Source: Eubacteriales bacterium (GTDB lineage Bacteria; Bacillota; Clostridia; Oscillospirales; CAG-272). Taken from it: a stretch of 64,000 bases of DNA. The stretch is from contig JAZQWF010000056.1 of the NCBI GenBank assembly GCA_045632185.1, positions 28,168 through 92,167 of the forward strand, read 5' to 3'. Made by a program: the position numbers and the translations under genes. Positions within the stretch are counted from its first letter, which is position 1; each line of letters opens with the position of its first letter. Shown one piece after another: positions 4,740 to 28,869 of this stretch. The notes beneath the pieces are model-generated. The model searched no databases. It saw only the letters and a list, made by a program, of their open reading frames with translations, and was not told the DNA's origin.

Positions 4740-5963
4740 TCAATTTTTCGCATTGCGAATACACAAATTCAATACCAGTGCCACAACCGTAAGGGCAAGC
4801 AGCATGATGAAGGTCACCGTATAGCCGCCGCTGAGCTCAAGCACCTTGTTGGATGCGGTAGCAACAAACGAGCCGATCATAACCGTGAAGGTCATCAGCG
4901 CCATATTGTTCGAAAAATGCTTCATACCGAAGCGCGAGGAGGTAAATGCCGCGGTAATGGTGGGGCACGCGCCATAGGACATGCCCGTCAGGCACGCGCC
5001 GATGATGCAAAGCGGGAGAGAGGTTGCCCAAACCGCGCTCAGCGTTACCAGTGCAGCCCCGATGGTCAACAGATTGGCGCAGATCATCGTTTTGCGGCAG
5101 CCAATCACGTCAAATACCGCGCCCGTAAGGATACGCCCAAGACCGTTGCACACAGAAAGGATGCCGACAAGGGAAACGGCAAGTGCCTCGGGTGCGTTTA
5201 CCGACAGGGCAAGATTTTTGGCAAAGCTGATTACCGAGCTTCCCACGGCAGCAAGGAAGGAAATACAAAGAAAAGCCAGCCAGAACGCGGGGGTGCAAAG
5301 CATCTGCTTTGCCGTAAGATCCTGCGTTTTTTCCGTAGTTGCGGCTTTTTTGGCGGTTGCTTGGGGGAAAACAACGTCAGCACCGGGTTTTTTCAGCACG
5401 ATGCCCGCCGCAACAAGCACCACAAGGAGAGAGGCACCAAGCAGAATGTAGGTCACGCGCCAGCCAAGCGTGCTTTTGAACATCGCATCGGCAAGATTGC
5501 CAAGCACCAAGGCGGATGCGCCAAAGCCCATCATAAGGCACCCAGAGCAAAGTCCTTTTTTATCGGGGAACCAGGCGTTTACGGTGGCGATCACCACATT
5601 ATAGGCGATGCCGATACCAAGACCTGCAAGAACACCGTAGGTGAGGTACAAAAGCAGGACGGAGGCGTCCTTCAAGGCGGCTGTCAGCATAAAACCCGCT
5701 GCCGCAAAAACGCCTGCGGCAATCAGAGCCACGCGGTGTCCAAGGCGCTTTGAGATCTGTGCGCCCAAAAGTCCGCCGATGCAGAAAAACGTCATGGCAA
5801 GCGTGAAATTAAGCGCAAGATCGGATACACCCCAGCCAAATTCGGCGGATAAGGGGGAGTTCAATATGGACCAGGCGTAAAGCACACCGGCAAAAAGCAT
5901 AGCGACAACACCGATGACCATATACACCCATCTGATGGATAATTTTTGTTTGACTTCGTTCAC
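4740..5963 (-). CDS. MFS transporter, oxalate/formate antiporter (OFA)-like family
   Basis: About 12 TM helices. The N-terminal signature RWVYMVIGVVAMLFAGVLYAWSILNSPLSAEFGW is typical of OFA-family MFS proteins. I placed the start at the second GTG (5963), 8 nt after an AGGAG. The track ORF starts at 5972. Confidence 0.85.
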   Translation of the reverse strand: MNEVKQKLSIRWVYMVIGVVAMLFAGVLYAWSILNSPLSAEFGWGVSDLALNFTLAMTFFCIGGLLGAQISKRLGHRVALIAAGVFAAAGFMLTAALKDASVLLLYLTYGVLAGLGIGIAYNVVIATVNAWFPDKKGLCSGCLMMGFGASALVLGNLADAMFKSTLGWRVTYILLGASLLVVLVAAGIVLKKPGADVVFPQATAKKAATTEKTQDLTAKQMLCTPAFWLAFLCISFLAAVGSSVISFAKNLALSVNAPEALAVSLVGILSVCNGLGRILTGAVFDVIGCRKTMICANLLTIGAALVTLSAVWATSLPLCIIGACLTGMSYGACPTITAAFTSSRFGMKHFSNNMALMTFTVMIGSFVATASNKVLELSGGYTVTFIMLLALTVVALVLNLCIRNAKN

Positions 5964-8210: not shown

Positions 8211-9089
8211 ATGAAAATTATCGAATTATTAAAAGAAAAAAAGCTTTCTATTTCCTTTGAGGTGTTTCCGCCCAAGACCGAGAGCAATTTTGAGGGGGTA
8301 AAGCGCGCGACCGAGCAGATCGCGGCGCTGCAACCCTCCTTTATGAGCGTGACCTACGGTGCGGGCGGCGGTACCAGTCAGTTCACCCTGGATATTGCCA
8401 AGAATATCATGGAGCAATACGCCGTGCCGAGCATTGCGCATCTGACCTGCGTGTCCTCTACGCGCCAAACGGTGCGCGAGCAGATCAAGCGGATCAAGGA
8501 GGCAGGCATTGAGAATATTCTTGCGCTGCGCGGTGATATTCCCGAGGAAAAGAAGAACGAGGATCGCTCGGGCTGGGACTACACCCACGCGGTGGATCTG
8601 GTGAGGGAATTGAAGGCAGAAAACCCCGATTTTTGCGTGGGCGGCGCCTGCTACCCCGAAATTCACCCCGAAAGCGCCGATCAGCGCACGGATATCCGTT
8701 ACTTAAAGGAGAAGGTGGACGCGGGCTGCGAGTTCCTGACCACACAGATGTTTTTTGATAACAATCTGCTGTATAATTTCCTTTACAAGATCCGCGAGGA
8801 GGGCGTGACCGTTCCCGTGATCCCCGGTATCATGCCGATCACCAACGGCAATCAGGTGGCGCGAGCCATCGCGCTTTCCGGCTCGTTCGTGCCGCAGCGC
8901 TTCAAGTCGCTTGTAGACAAGTTCGGCACCGATCCCGCCGCGATGAAGCAGGCGGGTATCGTCTATGCGACCGACCAGATCATCGACCTGTTCGCCAACG
9001 GTATCACGCACGTACACGTGTATTCGATGAACAAGCCCGACGTGGCACAGAGTATTCTGCGCAATCTGTCGGATATTCTTGGGAAATGA
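8211..9089 (+). CDS. metF: 5,10-methylenetetrahydrofolate reductase
   Basis: 292 aa. The N-terminus (SFEVFPPKT...SVTYGAGG) and the overall pattern are typical of MetF. It lies directly upstream of methionine synthase. Confidence 0.9.
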   Translation: MKIIELLKEKKLSISFEVFPPKTESNFEGVKRATEQIAALQPSFMSVTYGAGGGTSQFTLDIAKNIMEQYAVPSIAHLTCVSSTRQTVREQIKRIKEAGIENILALRGDIPEEKKNEDRSGWDYTHAVDLVRELKAENPDFCVGGACYPEIHPESADQRTDIRYLKEKVDAGCEFLTTQMFFDNNLLYNFLYKIREEGVTVPVIPGIMPITNGNQVARAIALSGSFVPQRFKSLVDKFGTDPAAMKQAGIVYATDQIIDLFANGITHVHVYSMNKPDVAQSILRNLSDILGK

Positions 9090-9562: not shown

Positions 9563-11964
9563 ATAATTTTAAGTCTTTTTTGAATGAAAATATCGTCCTT
9601 TTGGACGGTGGTATGGGAACTCTGTTGCAGGCGCGCGGCCTTGCTGCGGGCGAGCTTCCCGAGCGCTGGAACATCTCGCACCCCGAGGTGATTGTGGATA
9701 TCCAGACGCAATATTTCAATGCGGGCAGCAACGTGGTCTGTACCAACACCTTCGGTGCCAATGCACTCAAATTTGCGGACGAGGAGCTGGAAGCGATCAT
9801 TGCCGCCGCGATCCAAAACGCGAAAGCGGCAAGAGAAAAAAGCACCGCACCGCAGCAAAAATTCGTGGCGCTGGATATTGGCCCTTCGGGCAAGCTGTTG
9901 AAGCCGCTTGGAGATCTGGATTTTGAGGCCGCAGTAGAGATCTTTGCCAAGACCGTACGCCTTGGCGTGAAGCACGGCGCAGAGCTTGTTGTGATCGAAA
10001 CGATGAACGACAGCTATGAAACAAAGGCGGCGCTGCTGGCAGCCAAGGAAAGCTGCGATCTGCCCGTGATCGTGACCAACGCCTATGGCGAGGACGGCAA
10101 GCTGATGACGGGGGCTTCTCCCGAAGCGATGGTTGCCTTGCTGGAAGGCATGGGAGCGGACGCCATCGGCGCGAATTGCTCGCTGGGCCCTGCGCAGCTT
10201 GTTGGCGTGGCCGAGGCACTGCTGCGTGCGGCAAGCGTACCCGTAGTCTTAAAGCCCAATGCGGGACTTCCCGTGCTGCGCGATGGGAAAACCGAGTTTG
10301 ACGTTACGCCGTCGCAGTTTGCCGAGATCCTTGCTGATCTTGCGTGCAAGGGATTGCGCGTCATGGGTGGGTGCTGCGGTACAACGCCCGCGCATATTAC
10401 CGCTTTGCGCGAAAAAACGGCAGGACTTGCGCCCGTGCCGCTTACGAAAAAGAACAAAACCGTCATTTCCTCCTATACCCACGTCGTGGACTTTGCCAAC
10501 GAGCCGATCCTGATCGGCGAGCGCATCAATCCCACGGGCAAAAAGCGCTTTAAGCAGGCGCTTATGGAAAAGGATATGGATTATATCCTGAACGAGGGCG
10601 TGAAGCAGGAGGAAAAGGGTGTTCACGTACTGGACGTGAACGTGGGCTTGCCCGATATTGACGAGGTAGAGATGCTGAAAAGCGCCGTTTGCGAGCTGCA
10701 AGCGGTCACGAACCTGCCGCTCCAAATCGACACCGCCGATCCTGCCGCCATGGAGGCCGCACTGCGCCGCTACAACGGCAAGGCGATGGTCAATTCCGTG
10801 AACGGAAAAGAGGAGAGCATGCGCGCGGTATTTCCGCTTGTCAAAAAATACGGCGGTGTTGTGGTGGCGCTGACCTTGGACGAGGGCGGTATTCCCGCAG
10901 ATGCCAAGGGACGCATCGCCATTGCCGAAAGGATCCTTGCCACCGCTGCAGAATACGGCATTGAAGGGAAGGATATCGTATTTGATACGCTGGCTATGAC
11001 TGTCAGCGCGGACAATCAGGCGGCAAAGGCCACGCTCGGCGCGCTTTCTCATATCAAAAAAGTGTTGAGATGCCACACCTCGCTTGGTGTATCCAACGTT
11101 TCCTTCGGTCTGCCGCACCGCGATGCGGTGAACGCGACCTTCTTTGCAATGGCACTGACAAGCGGGCTTTCCGCCGCCATTATGAACCCGTATTCCGCGG
11201 ATATGATGAAGACCTATTTTGCGTACCGTGCGCTGAACGGTCAGGACGAAAACTGCGCGGATTATGTTGCCGCAGCAGCCGAATTTGCCGTGCAAGCGCC
11301 CGTGTTGACGAGCGATGCACCGCAAAAAAGTGCCGAGGAATATGCCTCTGAGCTGCAAAAAGCCGTGATCAAGGGATTTAAGGAGCGTGCGGGGGAATTG
11401 ACCAAGGAATTGCTGAAAACCGCCTTGCCGCTTGATATTGTGAACGGCGAGATCATTCCCGCACTCAATGCGGTGGGGGACGGTTTTGAGAAAAAGACCG
11501 TTTATCTGCCCCAGCTGCTGATTGCCGCCGAGGCCGCCAAGCACGCCTGTGAGCAGATCAAATCCTGCCTGTGCGCCGCAGATGCGCCTGCGGAGAAGAA
11601 AGCCCCCTTCGTGATCGCCACCGTGCATGGTGATATTCACGATATCGGCAAAAATATCGTGAAGCTTTTGCTGGAAAATTACGGCTTTGCCGTGATCGAT
11701 CTGGGAAAGGACGTGCCGCCTGAGGCGGTCGTTGAGGCCGTGATCGCGCATCACGCGCCGATGGTGGGACTTTCCGCGCTGATGACCACGACCGTACCCG
11801 CAATGGAAGAAACGATCAAGCGGCTGCGCGAAAAAGCGCCGTGGTGCCGTATCGTTGTGGGCGGTGCCGTGCTGACAGCAGAGTACGCCGATAAGATCGG
11901 TGCAGATGCCTACGCCAAGGACGCGATGGAAACCGTGCGCTTTGCGCAGAGCATTGCAGAATAA
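9559..11964 (+). CDS. metH: methionine synthase (homocysteine S-methyltransferase + pterin-binding + B12-binding domains; no fused activation domain)
   Basis: 801 aa. It has the Hcy-binding region (LLDGGMGT...GGCCGTTP), a pterin-binding region, and the cobalamin-binding motif with the His ligand (ATVHGDIHDIGKNIV). Confidence 0.93.
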   Translation: MNNFKSFLNENIVLLDGGMGTLLQARGLAAGELPERWNISHPEVIVDIQTQYFNAGSNVVCTNTFGANALKFADEELEAIIAAAIQNAKAAREKSTAPQQKFVALDIGPSGKLLKPLGDLDFEAAVEIFAKTVRLGVKHGAELVVIETMNDSYETKAALLAAKESCDLPVIVTNAYGEDGKLMTGASPEAMVALLEGMGADAIGANCSLGPAQLVGVAEALLRAASVPVVLKPNAGLPVLRDGKTEFDVTPSQFAEILADLACKGLRVMGGCCGTTPAHITALREKTAGLAPVPLTKKNKTVISSYTHVVDFANEPILIGERINPTGKKRFKQALMEKDMDYILNEGVKQEEKGVHVLDVNVGLPDIDEVEMLKSAVCELQAVTNLPLQIDTADPAAMEAALRRYNGKAMVNSVNGKEESMRAVFPLVKKYGGVVVALTLDEGGIPADAKGRIAIAERILATAAEYGIEGKDIVFDTLAMTVSADNQAAKATLGALSHIKKVLRCHTSLGVSNVSFGLPHRDAVNATFFAMALTSGLSAAIMNPYSADMMKTYFAYRALNGQDENCADYVAAAAEFAVQAPVLTSDAPQKSAEEYASELQKAVIKGFKERAGELTKELLKTALPLDIVNGEIIPALNAVGDGFEKKTVYLPQLLIAAEAAKHACEQIKSCLCAADAPAEKKAPFVIATVHGDIHDIGKNIVKLLLENYGFAVIDLGKDVPPEAVVEAVIAHHAPMVGLSALMTTTVPAMEETIKRLREKAPWCRIVVGGAVLTAEYADKIGADAYAKDAMETVRFAQSIAE

Positions 11965-24321: not shown

Positions 24322-25092
24322 TTATTTATTCTGATGCAGCACCTCAAAGCCGAGCACGGTGGCAGCAGAGGCAGCGGAAAGGGAACCGCGGAACTCTCTG
24401 CCGTAGTCGATGCGCACAGTCTGGTCGCAAAGTGCCATTACCTCGCGGGAAACGCCGCGTTTTTCGCCGCCAACGACCAATACAAGCGGTTTTTTCAGGT
24501 CTGCCTCGTACATGGAAACCGCGTCGCGGATACCCGCTGTTACGATACGATAGCCCAGCTTTTTCAGCTCGGTCAATGCCGTTAAGGGGTCGCCCGCAAA
24601 GACAGGAAACGCCTCGGAAGCACCCGCAGAGGCGCGTGCTACCACGCCCGCCGCAGAGAGCCAGTTACGCTCGCCGAGCAGAATGGCATCACACCCCGCC
24701 GCGTAAAGCGAGCGCAGAGCATAGCCGAAGTTATAAGGGTCCTCCAACCCTTCCAGATAGCACAAAAAGCCGTTTTTCGGCAGGTTTTGCGCGGTGGGGG
24801 CGGGAAGTGTGCGATCACCGCAAAGGGCGATCACGCCGCCGTGGGTGTTACCGATACAATTTTCCTCGATCGTGGCAGTATCCGTCAGCACAAGGGGAAT
24901 ACCCAGCTCGCGCGTTTTGGCCTGTAAAAAGCCGAATTCGCGCATTTTTTTCTCCTTTTTGGTACGGTCAAACCAGATCTCGTGGATCGGGCGATCATTC
25001 ACGCCCGCCGCCTTGGCTGCAAGCAGCGCGGAGATCGAGGTCATACCTTCCATTATATTAGACGGAACAAATCTTTTTTCTTCTTTGATCAT
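24322..25092 (-). CDS. TrmH/SpoU-family RNA 2'-O-methyltransferase (RlmB-like)
   Basis: 256 aa counted from MIKEEK. It has an N-terminal substrate-binding region and SpoU methylase motifs (LVVGGEKRGVS...IDYGREFRGSLSAASAATV). Confidence 0.85.
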   Translation of the reverse strand: MIKEEKRFVPSNIMEGMTSISALLAAKAAGVNDRPIHEIWFDRTKKEKKMREFGFLQAKTRELGIPLVLTDTATIEENCIGNTHGGVIALCGDRTLPAPTAQNLPKNGFLCYLEGLEDPYNFGYALRSLYAAGCDAILLGERNWLSAAGVVARASAGASEAFPVFAGDPLTALTELKKLGYRIVTAGIRDAVSMYEADLKKPLVLVVGGEKRGVSREVMALCDQTVRIDYGREFRGSLSAASAATVLGFEVLHQNK

Positions 25093-25182
25093 AATTACTT
25101 TCCTTTGTTCTTTTGCGCCGATGCGCCTCATAAGATAAGTATAGCAAATTTTTTGCAATTTTTCAACAGGGGAAAGGGAAAT

Positions 25183-25443
25183 ATGCTACATATTATAGAA
25201 GAAAATCGCTGCGAGGCGTTGGGGCGATATATTGTAAGCTATCAGGCGACCGTGCGTGACACCGCCGCAAAATTTCAGATCAGCAAAAGCACCGTACACA
25301 AGGATGTGACCGCCGTGCTGAAAAATATCAATCGCGGGCTTTATGAGGAGGTCAGTGCCATTTTGCAGAAAAACAAATCAGAGCGCCACCTGCGCGGCGG
25401 CGAGGCCACGCGAAAAAAATACGAGCGAAGCGGCAAAAAATAA
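25183..25443 (+). CDS. spoIIID: stage III sporulation protein D (mother-cell transcription regulator)
   Basis: 86 aa. The sequence MLHIIEENRCEALGRYIVSYQATVRDTAAKFQISKSTVHKDV...SERHLRGGEATRKKY matches the SpoIIID HTH family. A GGGGAAAGGGA ribosome-binding site is present. Confidence 0.9.
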   Translation: MLHIIEENRCEALGRYIVSYQATVRDTAAKFQISKSTVHKDVTAVLKNINRGLYEEVSAILQKNKSERHLRGGEATRKKYERSGKK

Positions 25444-25494
25444 ACGGGGAGGCGAAGAACCCGCCTTATTTGCTTTTTGGCTCATTTATAGATA

Positions 25495-25510
25495 CAATTA
25501 TACAAAATAC
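25495..25510. repeat. left direct repeat (attL core)
   Basis: CAATTATACAAAATAC, identical to 27803-27818. Confidence 0.95.
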
Positions 25511-25638
25511 GGTTTTTGTTTGACTTGAAAGTGGCGGGGGCGCCATTTCCTATCGCGCATTGCGCGGGCGCCTTTCCTTTCCGCCGCTGGGCGCGGGGCT
25601 TGCAACGAGCCAAACCATACAAAAACCCGTATTTTGTA
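25501..25638. repeat. imperfect inverted repeat: left att core paired with an inverted internal copy, enclosing an 83-nt loop
   Basis: Pairing was checked by hand. 25501-25512 pairs with 25627-25638 (12 bp), C25626 is unpaired, 25513-25519 pairs with 25619-25625 (7 bp), and 5 further pairs extend out to 25527/25611. Confidence 0.85.
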
Positions 25639-25771
25639 AGCACATCCGCGCTTCGGCGCGGGTGCGGTTAATTGCCGCGATTTCCGCCACTTGCCGCCGT
25701 CTGCGCGCGCGCGCCCCTCCTTCCCACTCTCCCGCCCGCTGGACAAATATTGCGATTGTGAAAAATCCCGC

Positions 25772-25800
25772 TTGACATTCCACACCAAGCGTGATATAAT
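25772..25800 (+). promoter_or_regulatory. near-consensus sigmaA promoter inside the element, facing rep
   Basis: TTGACA (25772-25777), a 17-nt spacer, then an extended -10 TGaTATAAT (25792-25800). Confidence 0.75.
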
Positions 25801-26138
25801 AAGTGTGCAGATATACCGCATGGTATAAACGCACGCCAAAGTCCACGATCGCGCGCAGGGCTGGGCGCTGTGATCGCGTGCGTAAGCCAAAGGGAGTTCC
25901 CGCAAGGGGGCTCCCTTTTCGCGTCCCCGCGTATGCGGGTATCTGCGCTCCCCCAGCGGGGGACGGGAGGGGGAGAAAACCCGCCCGCGGCGAAACGGGG
26001 TGCAGGGGTACCCCCTGCACGCAAGCCCCCTCGGGGGCACAGCGGAACGGGGGGGGAGGGCGCTCCGTTGCGCCCGTAACTCTCAATGGAGGATTGCAAA
26101 TCCATTACTTGATATATAGGACAGTATGTCATCAAATC
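25801..26138 (+). other. hairpin-dense GC-rich leader (candidate structured RNA or single-strand origin)
   Basis: There are successive stem-loops: GGGAG..CCC-GCAA-GGG..CTCCC (25893-25916), CCCGC-GTAT-GCGGG, CCCCC-AGC-GGGGG, GTGCAGGGG-TAC-CCCCTGCAC (a 9-bp stem) and GCCCC-CTCG-GGGGC. Translations in all frames are low-complexity G/R/P. Confidence 0.45.
26107..26115 (+). other. candidate rolling-circle nick site (phiX174-ori-like ACTTGATAT)
   Basis: There is a 9-nt identity to my recollection of the phiX174 origin core CAACTTG/ATATTAATAAC. The motif lies immediately 3' of a GGATT-GCA-AATCC hairpin and 24 nt upstream of the rep ATG. Confidence 0.3.
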
Positions 26139-26972
26139 ATGCAATTCCAGTCCAGCCAAAAACTAAATTCTTTTTCCGCCCCAGCGGAAAAATTCCACGC
26201 CCGCGCAAAGTACATTCCCGACGGAAACGGCGGCTTAAAACTCGCTATGGTTCAGGGCTTTACATTCCCGATGTTCAATCCCGACGCCGACGCCTCCGCC
26301 GTCAAAAAAAGCGGCGTTGCCGAGGATCCCGCCCCGCGCGATCCTACGGCTTCGCCCGCGCTTGCCGATGTTGAGCGCGCTTCCCGCCGCGCGAAAATTT
26401 CCGCTTTCGATAAAATCCTCTGCAATCCCGACCTTGACACCTTCGCCACATTCACCTATGCTCCCGATTTTGTGACCGATAAAGCCGATTGGGACGCGTG
26501 CTACCGCTATTTGAAAAATTGGCTTTCCAACCGCGTCCAGCGCGATGGCTTAAAATATGTGATTGTTCCCGAGCGTCACAAATCGGGGGATATTCATTTC
26601 CACGGGATTTTGAACAGCAGCGCGCTTGACCTTTCGCGCGCGGTGTCACCGAAAAGCGGCCGCCCGCTTTCCCACAAGGGCAACCCGCTTTTCAACATAC
26701 CCGATTGGCGCGGCGGCTTCACTTCTGCCGAGATTATTCAAGGCGGCGCGCAAGACCGCGAAAAAGTGGCAAAATATATTTTCAAGTACATGGGCAAGCA
26801 AGCGGGCGCGAAAGTCGGCGGGCGGTATATGCTTTCCGGCGGTGATCTTGTTTTGCCGACTTATGTTTACGAGCAGAGTATTGACGCGCTGCTTGACGGC
26901 ACCACGCCCGTTTATGATCGCGCCGTCGATCTTGGGGAGCGGGGTAAATATTTTGAGTACAGTTTTATTTGA
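26139..26972 (+). CDS. rolling-circle replication initiator, HUH superfamily I (two-tyrosine, Microviridae gpA/VP4-like)
   Basis: 277 aa counted from the first ATG after the structured region. Motif I is FATFTY, motif II is GDIHFHGIL (HUH), and motif III is KYIFKYMGK (Y-x-x-x-Y). The start codon is uncertain because no clear ribosome-binding site is present and the ORF stays open upstream to 25803. Confidence 0.75.
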   Translation: MQFQSSQKLNSFSAPAEKFHARAKYIPDGNGGLKLAMVQGFTFPMFNPDADASAVKKSGVAEDPAPRDPTASPALADVERASRRAKISAFDKILCNPDLDTFATFTYAPDFVTDKADWDACYRYLKNWLSNRVQRDGLKYVIVPERHKSGDIHFHGILNSSALDLSRAVSPKSGRPLSHKGNPLFNIPDWRGGFTSAEIIQGGAQDREKVAKYIFKYMGKQAGAKVGGRYMLSGGDLVLPTYVYEQSIDALLDGTTPVYDRAVDLGERGKYFEYSFI

Positions 26973-27109
26973 CAATGTGTCCCAAAAACGGGACGCAAAA
27001 TGCAGCCGCCCGCCGACGGCCGCCGCCCCCGGTGGTTGGCGGTGGGTGGAAGCCGCGCCCGCGCGGCAAAAACCCAGCCAAAAACAATTTAACAGTTTAG
27101 GAGTGTAAA

Positions 27110-27676
27110 ATGCAGAGCAAATACCTTGAAGCCCGCGAAATCTCCGCTTTGCGGCGTGAAGCGGGCGTAGAGTGGTTGCCGCTGGAAGTGGCATTTTTGA
27201 CGGGGCTGCGGATTGGTGATGTGCTGAAAATCCGCCCGTGTGATCTCACGCCGCAGGGCGTAGTTTACACGGCGGAAAAAACGGGCAAGCGTGGATTTGC
27301 GCCCCTGCCGCCAACGGTCTTGGCGGCGTTGCATAAAAATGCGCGGGGAGAATGGTGCTTTCCCTCGCCAAAGGCGAAAGGGAAGCACCTCACGCGCCAA
27401 GCCGCATGGCAACGCATAAAGAGAGCCGCCAAGCGCGCAGGGGTGGAGCCGCGCGGGGTGAGCCCGCACGCCCTGCGCAAAAGTTTTGCAGTGGAGCGCA
27501 TGCACACGGGGGGCTTGCAAGCGGTGCAGGCGGCGTTACAGCATGACAGCGCGGGTGTAACCGAGATTTACGCGCTTTCCGACTGGCTGACGGGGGAAAA
27601 CGCAAACAAGCCGCTTTTGCGCCGCGACCTGCAAGCCATTGCGACAAAAATTGCCGAGTTGCTTCGGGGGGGTTGA
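27110..27676 (+). CDS. tyrosine recombinase/integrase, catalytic domain only (188 aa)
   Basis: An AGGAG ribosome-binding site is present, and an in-frame TAG 12 nt upstream prevents any N-terminal extension. The catalytic signature is complete: Arg (LTGLRIGDV), Lys (EKTGKR), HxxR (SPHALRKSF), His (LQHDS) and the Tyr nucleophile (VTEIY). Confidence 0.85.
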   Translation: MQSKYLEAREISALRREAGVEWLPLEVAFLTGLRIGDVLKIRPCDLTPQGVVYTAEKTGKRGFAPLPPTVLAALHKNARGEWCFPSPKAKGKHLTRQAAWQRIKRAAKRAGVEPRGVSPHALRKSFAVERMHTGGLQAVQAALQHDSAGVTEIYALSDWLTGENANKPLLRRDLQAIATKIAELLRGG

Positions 27677-27802
27677 TTTTTGCGGGTTTCCGTGGTAACA
27701 TAGTGGGGAAAGGAGGTTGTCCTATAAAACAGCCATCTTCCTTTGGAGTTACCGCAAACAGGGGCGCTGTGCGCGCAGGTGGCGGCTTTTAATATGGCGG
27801 GG

Positions 27803-27818
27803 CAATTATACAAAATAC
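27803..27818. repeat. right direct repeat (attR core)
   Basis: CAATTATACAAAATAC. It is embedded in the perfect palindrome TATACAAAA-TACAAG-TTTTGTATA (27807-27830). Confidence 0.95.
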
Positions 27819-27966
27819 AAGTTTTGTATAAAAGAGGGGATCTAAAAAGGGCCTGAATACGGGGGTTTGGTGCGTCTGCGGCCTGATTTATGCTTGGGCG
27901 TGATATTCGGCCTGGATTTTTGATGGTTTTGCCTTCCTACGCAATTTTGATGTTTTTTGATCTGCT

Positions 27967-28108
27967 GCGTTAAAAATTTTTTCTTCAAACGATCAACACC
28001 CCGTACCGCACAATTATTTTTAACGTGCCTTTTTTCTTTGGAGCGCACTTACGGCATAAATTTTTCTTAAAAGCTTATTTTCAAAAAATGAGCGTTAAAA
28101 ATTTTTTC
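27967..28108. repeat. 17-bp perfect direct repeat pair GCGTTAAAAATTTTTTC (27967-27983 and 28092-28108) with inverted partial copies
   Basis: The two copies are exact and 125 bp apart. Partial inverted copies lie at 28016-28025 (ACGTTAAAAA on the minus strand) and 28144-28154 (GCTGCGTTAAA on the minus strand). Confidence 0.8.
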
Positions 28109-28443
28109 CTGTAACGGACTGTGCATCGTTTTTCATCATTTCATTTAACGCAGCAAAACGCCGCCGAGGCACCATCATATAAAATCCGAAAGCAATACAA
28201 ACATCACTTTGTAAAAAAATCCTTTTTCTTCTTTTTGTTAATGTTTTAACAATCAAAAGAAAAGCTTTGAGATTTTTATACAAAACAAAATCTTATAAAT
28301 TGTAAATAGTACCGATTTTTTCGTGTTTGTTCAAAAAAAGATTGCCCTTATTTTAGTTTTATGTTATAATATCTGCGTATGGTTGAAAGTATGCTTTACG
28401 GCAAGCTTTCCTATCAAAAAATTCATCGGAGGTTTACCGAATT

Positions 28444-28869
28444 ATGGCAATCAAAATGCGCGTACTTTACACCCCCACCAAGAAAAAACTGGCTGACATG
28501 GCCAATATCATCAAGGCAGAATACGCCCTGGACGTCAACGCTGTTGACAAGATCCTTCCCGCTTATTCCTGCAATAACGAGCGTATCGTGATCCTGATGC
28601 TCTCCCTCAAAGGCGAGCCCGACGATCAGCTCCGTCGTTTCTGCGGCGAGATGACCAAGGCACGTGCCAACAACACTGCCCTGATCATCAACGGTCCCGA
28701 GGCCGCTGCAAACCGCATGAAGGAGATCCTGGTGGCTGCCGGCACCAAGGTTGTTGACGAGGTATTCTACGTCAAGACCGCATTCCTTTCCTTCCTTGAC
28801 AAGATCACGGATGAGGAAAAGGCAGATCTGCTTGCTTGGACGCACCGCGTTGTTGACGGCTTGCAGTAA
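28444..28869 (+). CDS. hypothetical protein (alpha/beta, flavodoxin-like impression only)
   Basis: 141 aa. A GGAGG lies upstream, and a TTGCCC-17-TATAAT promoter sits at about 28343-28371. A strong terminator follows. I recognised no diagnostic motif. Confidence 0.55.
   Translation: MAIKMRVLYTPTKKKLADMANIIKAEYALDVNAVDKILPAYSCNNERIVILMLSLKGEPDDQLRRFCGEMTKARANNTALIINGPEAAANRMKEILVAAGTKVVDEVFYVKTAFLSFLDKITDEEKADLLAWTHRVVDGLQ

Follow-up and report, generated by a model that had tools for sequence, protein, structure and literature searches.

A 2.3-kb element encoding a rolling-circle Rep and a catalytic-domain-only tyrosine recombinase at a probable dif-like site of gut Clostridia

Introduction

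What sort of mobile element consists of a rolling-circle initiator, a recombinase and little else? The question is raised by a 2308-bp block in a 64,000-nt stretch of contig JAZQWF010000056.1 from a Eubacteriales bacterium (assembly GCA_045632185.1, positions 28,168 to 92,167), hereafter the window, whose coordinates are used below unless another contig is named. The block lies between spoIIID and a gene called p141 here, and it carries rep, for the initiator Rep, and int, for a tyrosine recombinase, Int. An original prediction, made from the letters alone, had taken it for a minimal integrated element bounded by attachment (att) repeats. The block is likely to be an intact, integrated rolling-circle mini-replicon of 2308 bp, from a family that alternates between a free circle of 2.2-3.2 kb and a chromosomal copy. 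We consider this family related to inoviruses and similar to the integrative mobile elements exploiting Xer recombination (IMEX), with an Xer-like recombinase of its own.

Results

Boundaries and gene content

The sequence CAATTATACAAAATAC occurs exactly at 25495-25510 and at 27803-27818 (both + strand), the crossover regions of attL and attR, respectively. The start-to-start spacing of these 16-bp direct repeats is 2308 bp, and one repeat copy plus the interior forms a unit of this length holding two genes, rep and int. There is no third copy of the repeat in the window even when two mismatches are allowed (0.02 expected by chance).

Rep and Int had been predicted to be the sole gene content, and we found no other conserved gene in the element. 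Within it there is neither a relaxase/oriT nor an FtsK-like transfer gene, as would mark an integrative mobilizable element (IME) or an actinomycete integrative and conjugative element (AICE); no Zot/pI morphogenesis ATPase or coat proteins, as in Inoviridae; and no capsid gene, as in a Microviridae prophage. Nucleotide searches with the whole element against phage and plasmid collections gave no match. The GC contrast that had been described holds in part. With 57.6% GC against 53.0% for the window, the element is the GC-richest stretch of its length (other 2308-bp stretches of the window peak at 57.2%), but it lies only about 2 standard deviations above host coding DNA, and the contrast is strong mainly because the adjoining intergenic flanks are AT-rich (34-45% GC).

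Empty sites and circular forms

Near-conspecific genomes differ in whether they carry the element at one precise site. The empty allele, reading ...CACAATTATACAAAATACAAGTTTTGTATAAAAGAGGGGAT..., was found in four metagenome samples (contigs L063, L064, L065 and L067), which were reached only via SpoIIID homologues. These contigs are about 96% identical to the window over 24328-25457, whereupon the alignment jumps to 27803 and all four continue into the window's downstream DNA. The repeat is present in them as a single copy; L063 reads ...cacaattatacaaaatacaagttttgtataaaagaggggat..., and L064, L065 and L067 each differ by one base. The site is also unoccupied in the more distant contigs L068-L073, in which SpoIIID is about 91% identical and the gene order is the same. 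Exact-protein look-ups of the window's SpoIIID and of a 218-aa neighbour found neither on record, and contigs with p141 homologues end before reaching the site.

A metagenome contig that is 93% identical, L001, contains the circular junction ...GGCGGGGCAATTATACAAAATGCCCGTTTTGTTTGACTTG...; the corresponding attP junction of the window's element would be GGCGGGGCAATTATACAAAATACGGTTTTTGTTTGAC. The first 1793 nt of this 2244-bp contig are 93% identical to window 26033-27816, and the contig then passes through the shared core into the equivalent of window 25495-25951, making it a circular permutation of the element. A second contig, L002, whose Rep is 97% identical, is a circle with a 30-nt terminal overlap. 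Altogether, 13 fetched contigs have terminal overlaps equal to an assembler k-mer (30, 77, 127 or 141 nt) and are read as circles; their units measure 2.17-3.17 kb, and rep, int and the core TATACAAAA...TTTTG are found in each of them. With exact repeats and with both the empty site and the circular junction recovered, the prediction of a minimal integrated element bounded by att repeats is supported, and the element is genuine and probably still mobile.

Some variants of these arrangements were seen. L002 has an additional 61-aa gene between rep and int (L002:1401-1586), similar to the exonuclease VII small subunit XseB (PF02609, E = 2e-19), at a position where the window's element has only a spacer of about 140 bp. 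In L024, a 93-bp stretch ending in the core occurs at 5003-5095 (the left end of an element), at 8734-8826 (attR) and at 11072-11160, the third copy being situated downstream of the p147 gene, where a further element copy starts; in L059 and L060, 80 nt of the host-left flank are repeated. These repeats suggest tandem or nested insertions, or assembly paths that mix circular and integrated forms. In the near-conspecific empty-site contig L066, a deletion starts directly after ...ATACAAGTTTTGT (L066:1060-1090) and takes the outer right arm together with about 57 nt of flank, the sequence picking up at GGCCTGATTTATG; an aberrant recombination event could have left such a scar at the site.

A large family in gut Clostridia

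The element is not an isolated case but one member of a large family. At 90% identity, Rep homologues form 473 clusters and Int homologues 484, mostly on contigs of 2-3.5 kb; at 50% identity, there are 79 clusters with E <= 1e-30. About three quarters of the best 120 Rep clusters lie on contigs of 2.0-3.6 kb. All 24 genome matches are in gut metagenome-assembled genomes (MAGs), 23 of them assigned to Clostridia, Eubacteriales, Oscillospiraceae or Ca. Flemingiibacterium; the exception is a 3-kb circular contig binned as Bacteroidales. The family is seen both as circular contigs of 2.2-3.2 kb and as integrated copies, and a tyrosine recombinase is present in every element. Integrated relatives whose Reps are only 35-55% identical to that of the window have units of 2.8-4.4 kb between flanking repeats that contain (C)AATTATACAAAA. 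In the literature we found no description of the motif, of IMEX in Clostridia or of mini-elements that pair a Rep with a recombinase; likewise, we found no described family that fits the element, as had been suspected, and this large family of gut Clostridia is apparently undescribed.

Contigs L009-L014 and L020 were rejected as members and left out of the att analysis, since they encode a full-length integrase, have no TATACAAAA cores and represent a different element type. In these contigs (e.g., L010:5947-7745), the same Rep family and origin block are followed by an overlapping integrase gene, whose product is full-length (about 300 aa) and has a SAM-like domain at its N-terminus, and several genes lie upstream; this type presumably integrates elsewhere.

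The host target site

The 32 bp at attR (27803-27834, no strand assigned) are the reconstituted host palindrome CAATTATACAAAA-TACAAG-TTTTGTATAAAAG, a candidate dif-like site. They are identical to the empty site of L063 and differ by one base from those of L064, L065 and L067. The host consensus is cAATTATACAAAA-TGCAAA-TTTTGTATAATTg, a 13-6-13 layout that can also be written TATACAAAA-N6-TTTTGTATA; the window's species has TACAAG as its spacer and ...TATAAAAG at the end of its right arm. The palindrome is syntenic in many genera, after spoIIID and before coaX and/or the p141 homologue, and it is kept where the surrounding intergenic DNA no longer aligns between genera. Its distance from the stop codon of spoIIID is about 50 nt, and many genomes have coaX 55-85 nt after it.

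In Firmicutes, a switch of GC skew from plus to minus marks the replication terminus. The cumulative G-C curve of the window rises to a plateau at 20.4-33.1 kb, within which the palindrome falls, and then declines; left of the element the skew is +0.040, right of it -0.043, and the observed value was not attained in any of 10000 block permutations. The window has no match to the canonical dif pattern of Firmicutes. The arms of the palindrome, ...TTAT.(C)AAAA-N6-TTTT..., are similar in pattern to the difH arm, AGTTATGAAAA (PMC5357621), and similar reasoning from the insertion site of the mobile element LME-1 revealed the dif site of Legionella (PMC9765430). Because it combines a recombinase-style palindrome with conservation, a terminus position and use by elements that lack a recombinase (see below), an Xer-type site is the best reading, and the palindrome is probably the dif-like site of this chromosome.

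Similar half-sites occur nearby. A further TATACAAAA lies about 170 nt upstream of the p141 gene (28268-28300), at a position conserved in relatives; in L070 this motif reads ATACAAAACGAAATATGGCGTTTTGT, which looks like two arms around a 12-nt spacer. Genomes that keep coaX have a further half-site, AATTATACAAAAT, after that gene.

The attachment site and its predicted fold

The attL core (25495-25522, + strand) is made up of the left arm CAATTATACAAAA (13 nt), a TACGGT spacer and an element-type right arm, TTTTGTTTG. In relatives the layout is TATACAAAA, a spacer of 6-10 nt and then TTTTGT(T/A)..., and the right arm TTTTGTTTGAC is common to the window's element, L001, L029, L054 and an inovirus in contig L062. 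As in IMEX, attP thus mimics the arms of the host site, with an identical left arm and a right arm beginning TTTTGT(T/A). In seven of the eight integrated elements, attP and attB agree over the 13-nt left arm and no further than 1-3 nt into the spacer (TAC for the window's element; TGC, TG, T, GGA, GAT or TT elsewhere).

All elements examined contain another arm-spacer-arm site, 50-150 nt from the core. The window's second site is CCATACAAAA-ACCCGTA-TTTTGTAAGC (25615-25641, + strand), which is inverted relative to the core (inverted repeat of 17 nt, 94% complementary). The spacer ends of the core (site 1) and of this second site (site 2) are complementary, with a mean run of 2.1 from each side against 1.35 and 0.61 in shuffled sets (P <= 1e-4; 16 elements, partly related). 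Between L001 and the window, which are 93% identical, both spacers have changed together, from TGCCCG/CGTGCA to TACGGT/ACCCGTA. Folding of the + strand as DNA predicts a long imperfect hairpin at 25501-25638 (-38.3 kcal/mol; z = -4.1 for 25488-25650) in which site 1 is paired with site 2, a candidate folded attP. The same pairing is predicted in all 13 elements folded (z from -4 to -11), and a bubble of 2-4 nt falls in the spacer.

As modelled, this is an attP of the CTXphi type, with two inverted sites folded on each other. In CTXphi, attP(+) consists of two inverted sites 90 nt apart with homology on the XerC side only, and integration proceeds by one strand exchange that is resolved by replication (PMC5357621, PMC3442271).

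Rep and its origin

The rep gene (26139-26972, + strand) encodes a 277-aa HUH rolling-circle initiator that matches PF23343 (REP_ORF2-G2P; E = 1e-13, above the cut-off) and phrog_3419, PHROG 3419 being a rolling-circle initiator family. Its motifs FATFTY, IHFHGI (HUH) and KYIFKYMGK, the last with a pair of tyrosines four residues apart, do not vary among 28 aligned homologues and give Rep the motif 1, HUH and YxxxY of the phiX174 gpA/pC194 class. A profile sequence search with Rep against the PDB gave no match.

The block immediately upstream of the rep start codon is a predicted double-strand origin, ATTACTTGATATATAGGACAGTATGTCATCAA (26104-26135, + strand). Origins of phiX174 and of the pC194 family contain the nick site CTTG^ATA, and CTTGATA is shared with the predicted origin of the element; by analogy, Rep may nick the + strand between 26111 and 26112, within TTACTTGATATATAGG. 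Because the nick is placed on the + strand, the strand displaced would be the one folded above for the attP hairpin. An exact CTTGATA stands directly before rep in 33 of 51 Rep-bearing loci, and nearly all other loci have the block with a one-base variant (CTTGATT or CTAGATA), for an estimated total of about 49 of 51; an inovirus prophage in contig L025 is among them.

Both rep and int are under purifying selection: relative to L001 and L002, substitutions at the three codon positions number 3/2/28 and 11/4/67 in rep, and 11/4/46 and 2/3/20 in int. In contrast, substitutions at 25498-26159, counted against the same two relatives, are evenly spread (18/19/15), and the 5' part of about 630 bp is therefore considered non-coding. 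Long mechanical open reading frames (ORFs) on the minus strand of 25498-26159 were rejected as genes, there being no codon periodicity in their substitutions. This 5' part includes a sigma-70 promoter facing rep (25772-25800, + strand), with TTGACA, a 17-nt spacer, TATAAT and a TG just before the -10 element (all 12 consensus positions matched). Downstream of it, perfect hairpins follow one another in GC-rich, non-coding DNA (25800-26100, + strand; DNA fold z = -6.1 for 25800-26140), which could act as single-strand origin, leader or packaging region. An Rfam search returned sub-threshold chance matches only.

A recombinase reduced to its catalytic domain

The int gene (27110-27676, + strand) encodes a 188-aa tyrosine recombinase that has the catalytic domain only (PF00589, E = 6e-19). 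Its alignment with E. coli XerD covers XerD residues 136-278, Int residue 24 aligning with XerD 136, and the N-terminal core-binding domain found in XerC, XerD, XerH, XerS and XerA is absent. The hexad R34, K57, H120, R123, H145 and Y154 is invariant among 32 diverse homologues, all of 185-227 aa, and aligns with XerD R148...Y279, so that the catalytic residues are Xer-like. Nearly all of the best 120 clusters of Int homologues measure 185-227 aa (full range 138-227 aa, two being shorter fragments), and the short length is therefore native to the family. An AF2 model of Int with a predicted local distance difference test (pLDDT) score of 91.7 has a fold that matches XerH and XerA best, and also lambda Int and XerD. 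The template modelling (TM) score is about 0.7 by query but only about 0.4 by target, since the model matches only the catalytic domains of these full-length structures. There is also a weak match to a tyrosine invertase family.

After the catalytic tyrosine, the short recombinases share a motif, Y-A-L-S-D-W-x-T-G-x-N-A-x-x-P-L-x-R-x-D, with invariant residues D158, W159, G162, N164, P168, R171 and D173, followed by an amphipathic helix (27569-27676, Int 154-188). This motif was not seen in the XerD alignment; it may make up for the absent N-terminal domain by mediating contacts between subunits.

Inoviruses at the same site

Two integrase-less inoviruses occupy the palindrome and, having no recombinase of their own, share this feature with IMEX. 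One is a prophage of about 4.9 kb next to coaX in a Clostridia MAG from goat caecum (L025:5639-10560); it encodes a Rep of the window's family, Zot (PF05707) and coat-like and pIII-like proteins, is flanked by AATTATACAAAATGGAAATT, and has its genes running opposite to the orientation of the mini-elements. The other (L062:3635-12620) encodes a repressor, Zot and a Rep_trans-type Rep, has the attL TTATACAAAA-TATACACAG-TTTTGTTTGAC and is followed directly by a mini-element of 3.05 kb with rep, a 70-aa ORF (weak Lar-like match), int and a 141-aa minus-strand ORF, a tandem that recalls CTXphi-RS1-TLC arrays. Because these inoviruses sit at the palindrome between the same repeats without an integrase, a host or trans-acting recombinase must act there. 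The origin block and the site-2 sequence are common to inoviruses and mini-elements, one inovirus sharing the Rep family and the origin and the other site 2. With no morphogenesis genes of its own, with this shared Rep family, origin block and site 2, and with the L062 tandem, the element resembles a filamentous-phage satellite.

A comparison of Rep with Microviridae VP4/gpA had been proposed; the closest phage Reps are instead from Inoviridae. All 25 matches in the phage collection (27-36% identity) are from bajarodino and Dulem viruses, gut viruses of 5-9 kb, none of them Microviridae, and records H1-H3, the three that were inspected, carry an Inoviridae annotation and include Zot.

Among plasmids, the matches (H26-H50; e.g., NC_013451.1) are cryptic Staphylococcus and Macrococcus plasmids of 1.4-2.3 kb, with Reps 28-32% identical and usually annotated as hypothetical. 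Parts of the host site were also seen in two phages with no annotated integrase: a GenBank Microviridae genome from yak faeces contains the left arm plus 2 nt, CAATTATACAAAATG (L076:3598-3629), and Inovirus bajarodino virus 50 contains the spacer plus right arm, GCAAATTTTGTATAATT (L075:3225-3255). Other single-stranded DNA phages of the gut may use the same host site.

Discussion

A possible life cycle

A mechanism can be proposed that would accommodate these features. Rep would start rolling-circle replication with a nick in the + strand at CTTG^ATA, just before rep itself, and + strand circles would be released. In these, the core and its inverted partner about 100 nt away could fold into a dif-like duplex, a + strand attP comparable to that of CTXphi. 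The host palindrome, as a dif-like site, would be read by a host Xer-type recombinase, a strand would be exchanged with it at the left arm only, and replication would resolve the intermediate. Int might take part in the reaction or control it, either as a catalytic subunit acting alone or joined to host Xer subunits, and might make integration or excision independent of host activation. Horizontal spread would probably occur by hitch-hiking in related inoviruses, as for RS1, TLCphi and pDolos, because the element is without transfer genes.

A bolder extension, which we put forward tentatively and think less likely to be right than wrong, is that CAATTATACAAAA-N6-TTTTGTATAATTG is the dimer-resolution site of an unrecognised single-recombinase Xer system in gut Clostridia of the Oscillospirales type. 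It would serve as a landing pad for integrase-less inoviruses, possibly microviruses, and mini-elements, the last being satellites of inoviruses, and Int would join the host Xer synapse as an active subunit on a folded + strand attP, with a single strand exchange that does not need FtsK. Such hijacking of a host Xer synapse has not been described for any IMEX.

Several observations weigh against parts of this scheme. A double-stranded attP core with two arms exists, and an element with its own recombinase would not need the host Xer; no other recombinase gene, such as that of a host Xer, is present in the window. The covariation of the two spacers comes from partly related elements, and the hairpin they form could be a single-strand origin or packaging signal. 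The identification of the palindrome as dif draws on one 64-kb skew profile, the architecture of the site, its conservation and its use by integrase-less phages; short-flank skew at ten other loci is mixed, with local gene orientation dominating, and gene orientation in the window shows no switch at the site. Terminal overlaps of contigs could also arise from tandem chromosomal copies, arrays of which exist (L024 and L059), and SPAdes coverages of 2-8x give no sign of a high-copy plasmid. Encapsidation is unsupported, since no relative of Rep was found in IMG/VR by single sequence or by profile, a search that is uninformative for contigs of 2-3 kb without hallmark genes, and since inoviruses and mini-elements have no common packaging signal beyond the origin block and site 2.

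Alternative explanations

Some of these points would fit the main rival, a self-sufficient integrative cryptic plasmid, in which Int alone recombines a double-stranded attP with attB in the manner of Cre or FimB, the palindrome is a terminator- or operator-type hairpin rather than dif, and no helper phage is involved. Such a plasmid would explain why int is present; Int has a complete hexad and weakly matches tyrosine invertases, recombinases of about 200 aa exist, and the double-stranded attP does have two arms. Beyond the skew, no support for dif is independent of recombinases, and a hairpin of this kind would suit a position about 50 nt after the spoIIID stop codon and often 55-85 nt before coaX. 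However, integrase-less inoviruses with the same flanking repeats occupy the site, which moreover lies at the skew switch; spacer identity of 1-3 nt on one side and attP spacers of 6-10 nt would be awkward for two exchanges, and the covarying inverted partner site would be left without a role. On balance we regard this explanation as rather unlikely. A role for the partner site could be found outside recombination if the hairpin of sites 1 and 2 served the + strand as its single-strand origin or as a packaging signal of the inovirus type. A structured single-strand origin is a requirement of rolling-circle replicons, and filamentous phages package via a long imperfect hairpin; signals of both sorts are thus known in such replicons, and the hairpin here does extend into the DNA between the two sites. 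Yet its paired stems reproduce the arms of the host site and its unpaired bubble falls exactly in the spacer, and the separate hairpin-rich region at 25800-26100 could itself be the single-strand origin, all of which makes this second explanation doubtful as well.

Two further readings deny the element its present mobility or its mode of integration, and both were rejected. A decaying prophage remnant of an inovirus or microvirus, immobile after loss of its structural genes, would account for a Rep family and an att module held in common with inoviruses. It is very improbable, given purifying selection on rep and int, exact repeats, presence/absence polymorphism at about 96% flank identity and a two-gene layout that recurs in hundreds of diverged members and 13 circular contigs. 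An HUH transposon of the IS91 or IS200 type, with the 16-bp repeat as a target-site duplication, is still harder to credit: Rep is indeed a two-tyrosine HUH enzyme and a single-copy empty site would also be expected from target duplication, but circular forms carry the repeat core as part of the element, insertions are all at one conserved palindrome and a tyrosine recombinase is always present.

Comparison with known systems

An integrated rolling-circle mini-replicon, as we prefer to read the element, has its closest parallel in the CTXphi-type IMEX of Vibrio cholerae. Both are rolling-circle replicons with single-stranded DNA, located at a recombinase palindrome (here a candidate one) of the terminus; in both, attP comprises a pair of dif-like sites in inverted orientation, about 90-100 nt apart, which form a hairpin with each other (predicted here), homology to the host site lies on one side of the overlap, and tandem arrays with related elements occur. 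Unlike CTXphi, which has no recombinase and uses XerC/XerD at an asymmetric dif, the element has a catalytic-domain-only recombinase and a perfect palindrome with 13-nt arms; it also lacks genes for coat proteins or morphogenesis and resides in Clostridia of the gut, which are Gram-positive. It departs from the definition of IMEX in one of the features compared, because it encodes its own recombinase.

RS1, TLCphi and pDolos are similar in being small Rep-encoding replicons without morphogenesis genes that are associated with inoviruses and integrated beside them at the same site, with the difference that pDolos is non-integrative. TLCphi encodes XafT, a factor of its own that modifies Xer recombination (PMC6744903, PMC9226527), and pDolos is a rolling-circle plasmid packaged by an inovirus (10.1101/2023.11.28.569023). 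For the present element, helper packaging is a possibility; its accessory protein is a recombinase domain rather than an activator as in TLCphi, and, with 2.3 kb and two genes, it is smaller than RS1 or TLCphi.

As with LME-1 and the XerL dif of Legionella, the attachment site of a mobile element here points to a near-palindrome at the terminus, and the arms resemble difH and the fold of Int is closest to XerH and XerA, which recalls the XerH/difH, XerS/difSL and XerA systems (PMC9765430, PMC5357621). Int differs from XerH, XerS and XerL in being half their size and borne by the element. The pairing of an HUH Rep with a tyrosine integrase and the alternation between circle and integrated copy are also found in pSAM2-type AICEs, integrative rolling-circle plasmids and streptococcal IMEs; all of these, however, measure at least 10 kb, encode a full-length integrase together with an excisionase and functions for transfer or mobilisation, and insert into tRNA or protein genes, none of which applies to the present element. 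The HUH and YxxxY motifs of Rep and an origin with CTTGATA are those of phiX174 gpA, of pC194 Reps and of 1.4-kb staphylococcal plasmids (Reps 28-32% identical in the last), but these replicons have no recombinase and do not integrate. The element is thus best filed as a variant of the theme of IMEX and filamentous-phage satellites, and not as an inovirus, microvirus, IME, AICE or transposon.

With two genes in 2.3 kb, the element is near the smallest conceivable replicon that both replicates itself and integrates site-specifically, and its family in animal and human gut Clostridia has been overlooked by annotation and virus-detection pipelines. The palindrome it occupies is probably a dif-like site not reported before, in gut bacteria that are uncultured or little studied, and the combination of a folded attP with a catalytic-domain-only recombinase raises the question of whether such a recombinase acts alone or joins the host Xer. 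A self-replicating, self-integrating module of 2.3 kb with a 32-bp target could also become a genetic tool for Clostridia that are hard to manipulate.

The neighbourhood of the site

To the left, the element adjoins spoIIID (25183-25443; PF12116, E = 5e-32); to the right, the p141 gene, starting at 28444, encodes a 141-aa protein with no family match. In the window's species, the interval between spoIIID and p141 is without coaX and membrane-protein genes, and window 27819-28443 consists of about 600 bp of AT-rich, ORF-free DNA. In L019, L024 and L026, coaX and membrane-protein genes lie between the site and the p147 homologue, and L025 and L051 keep most of this interval.

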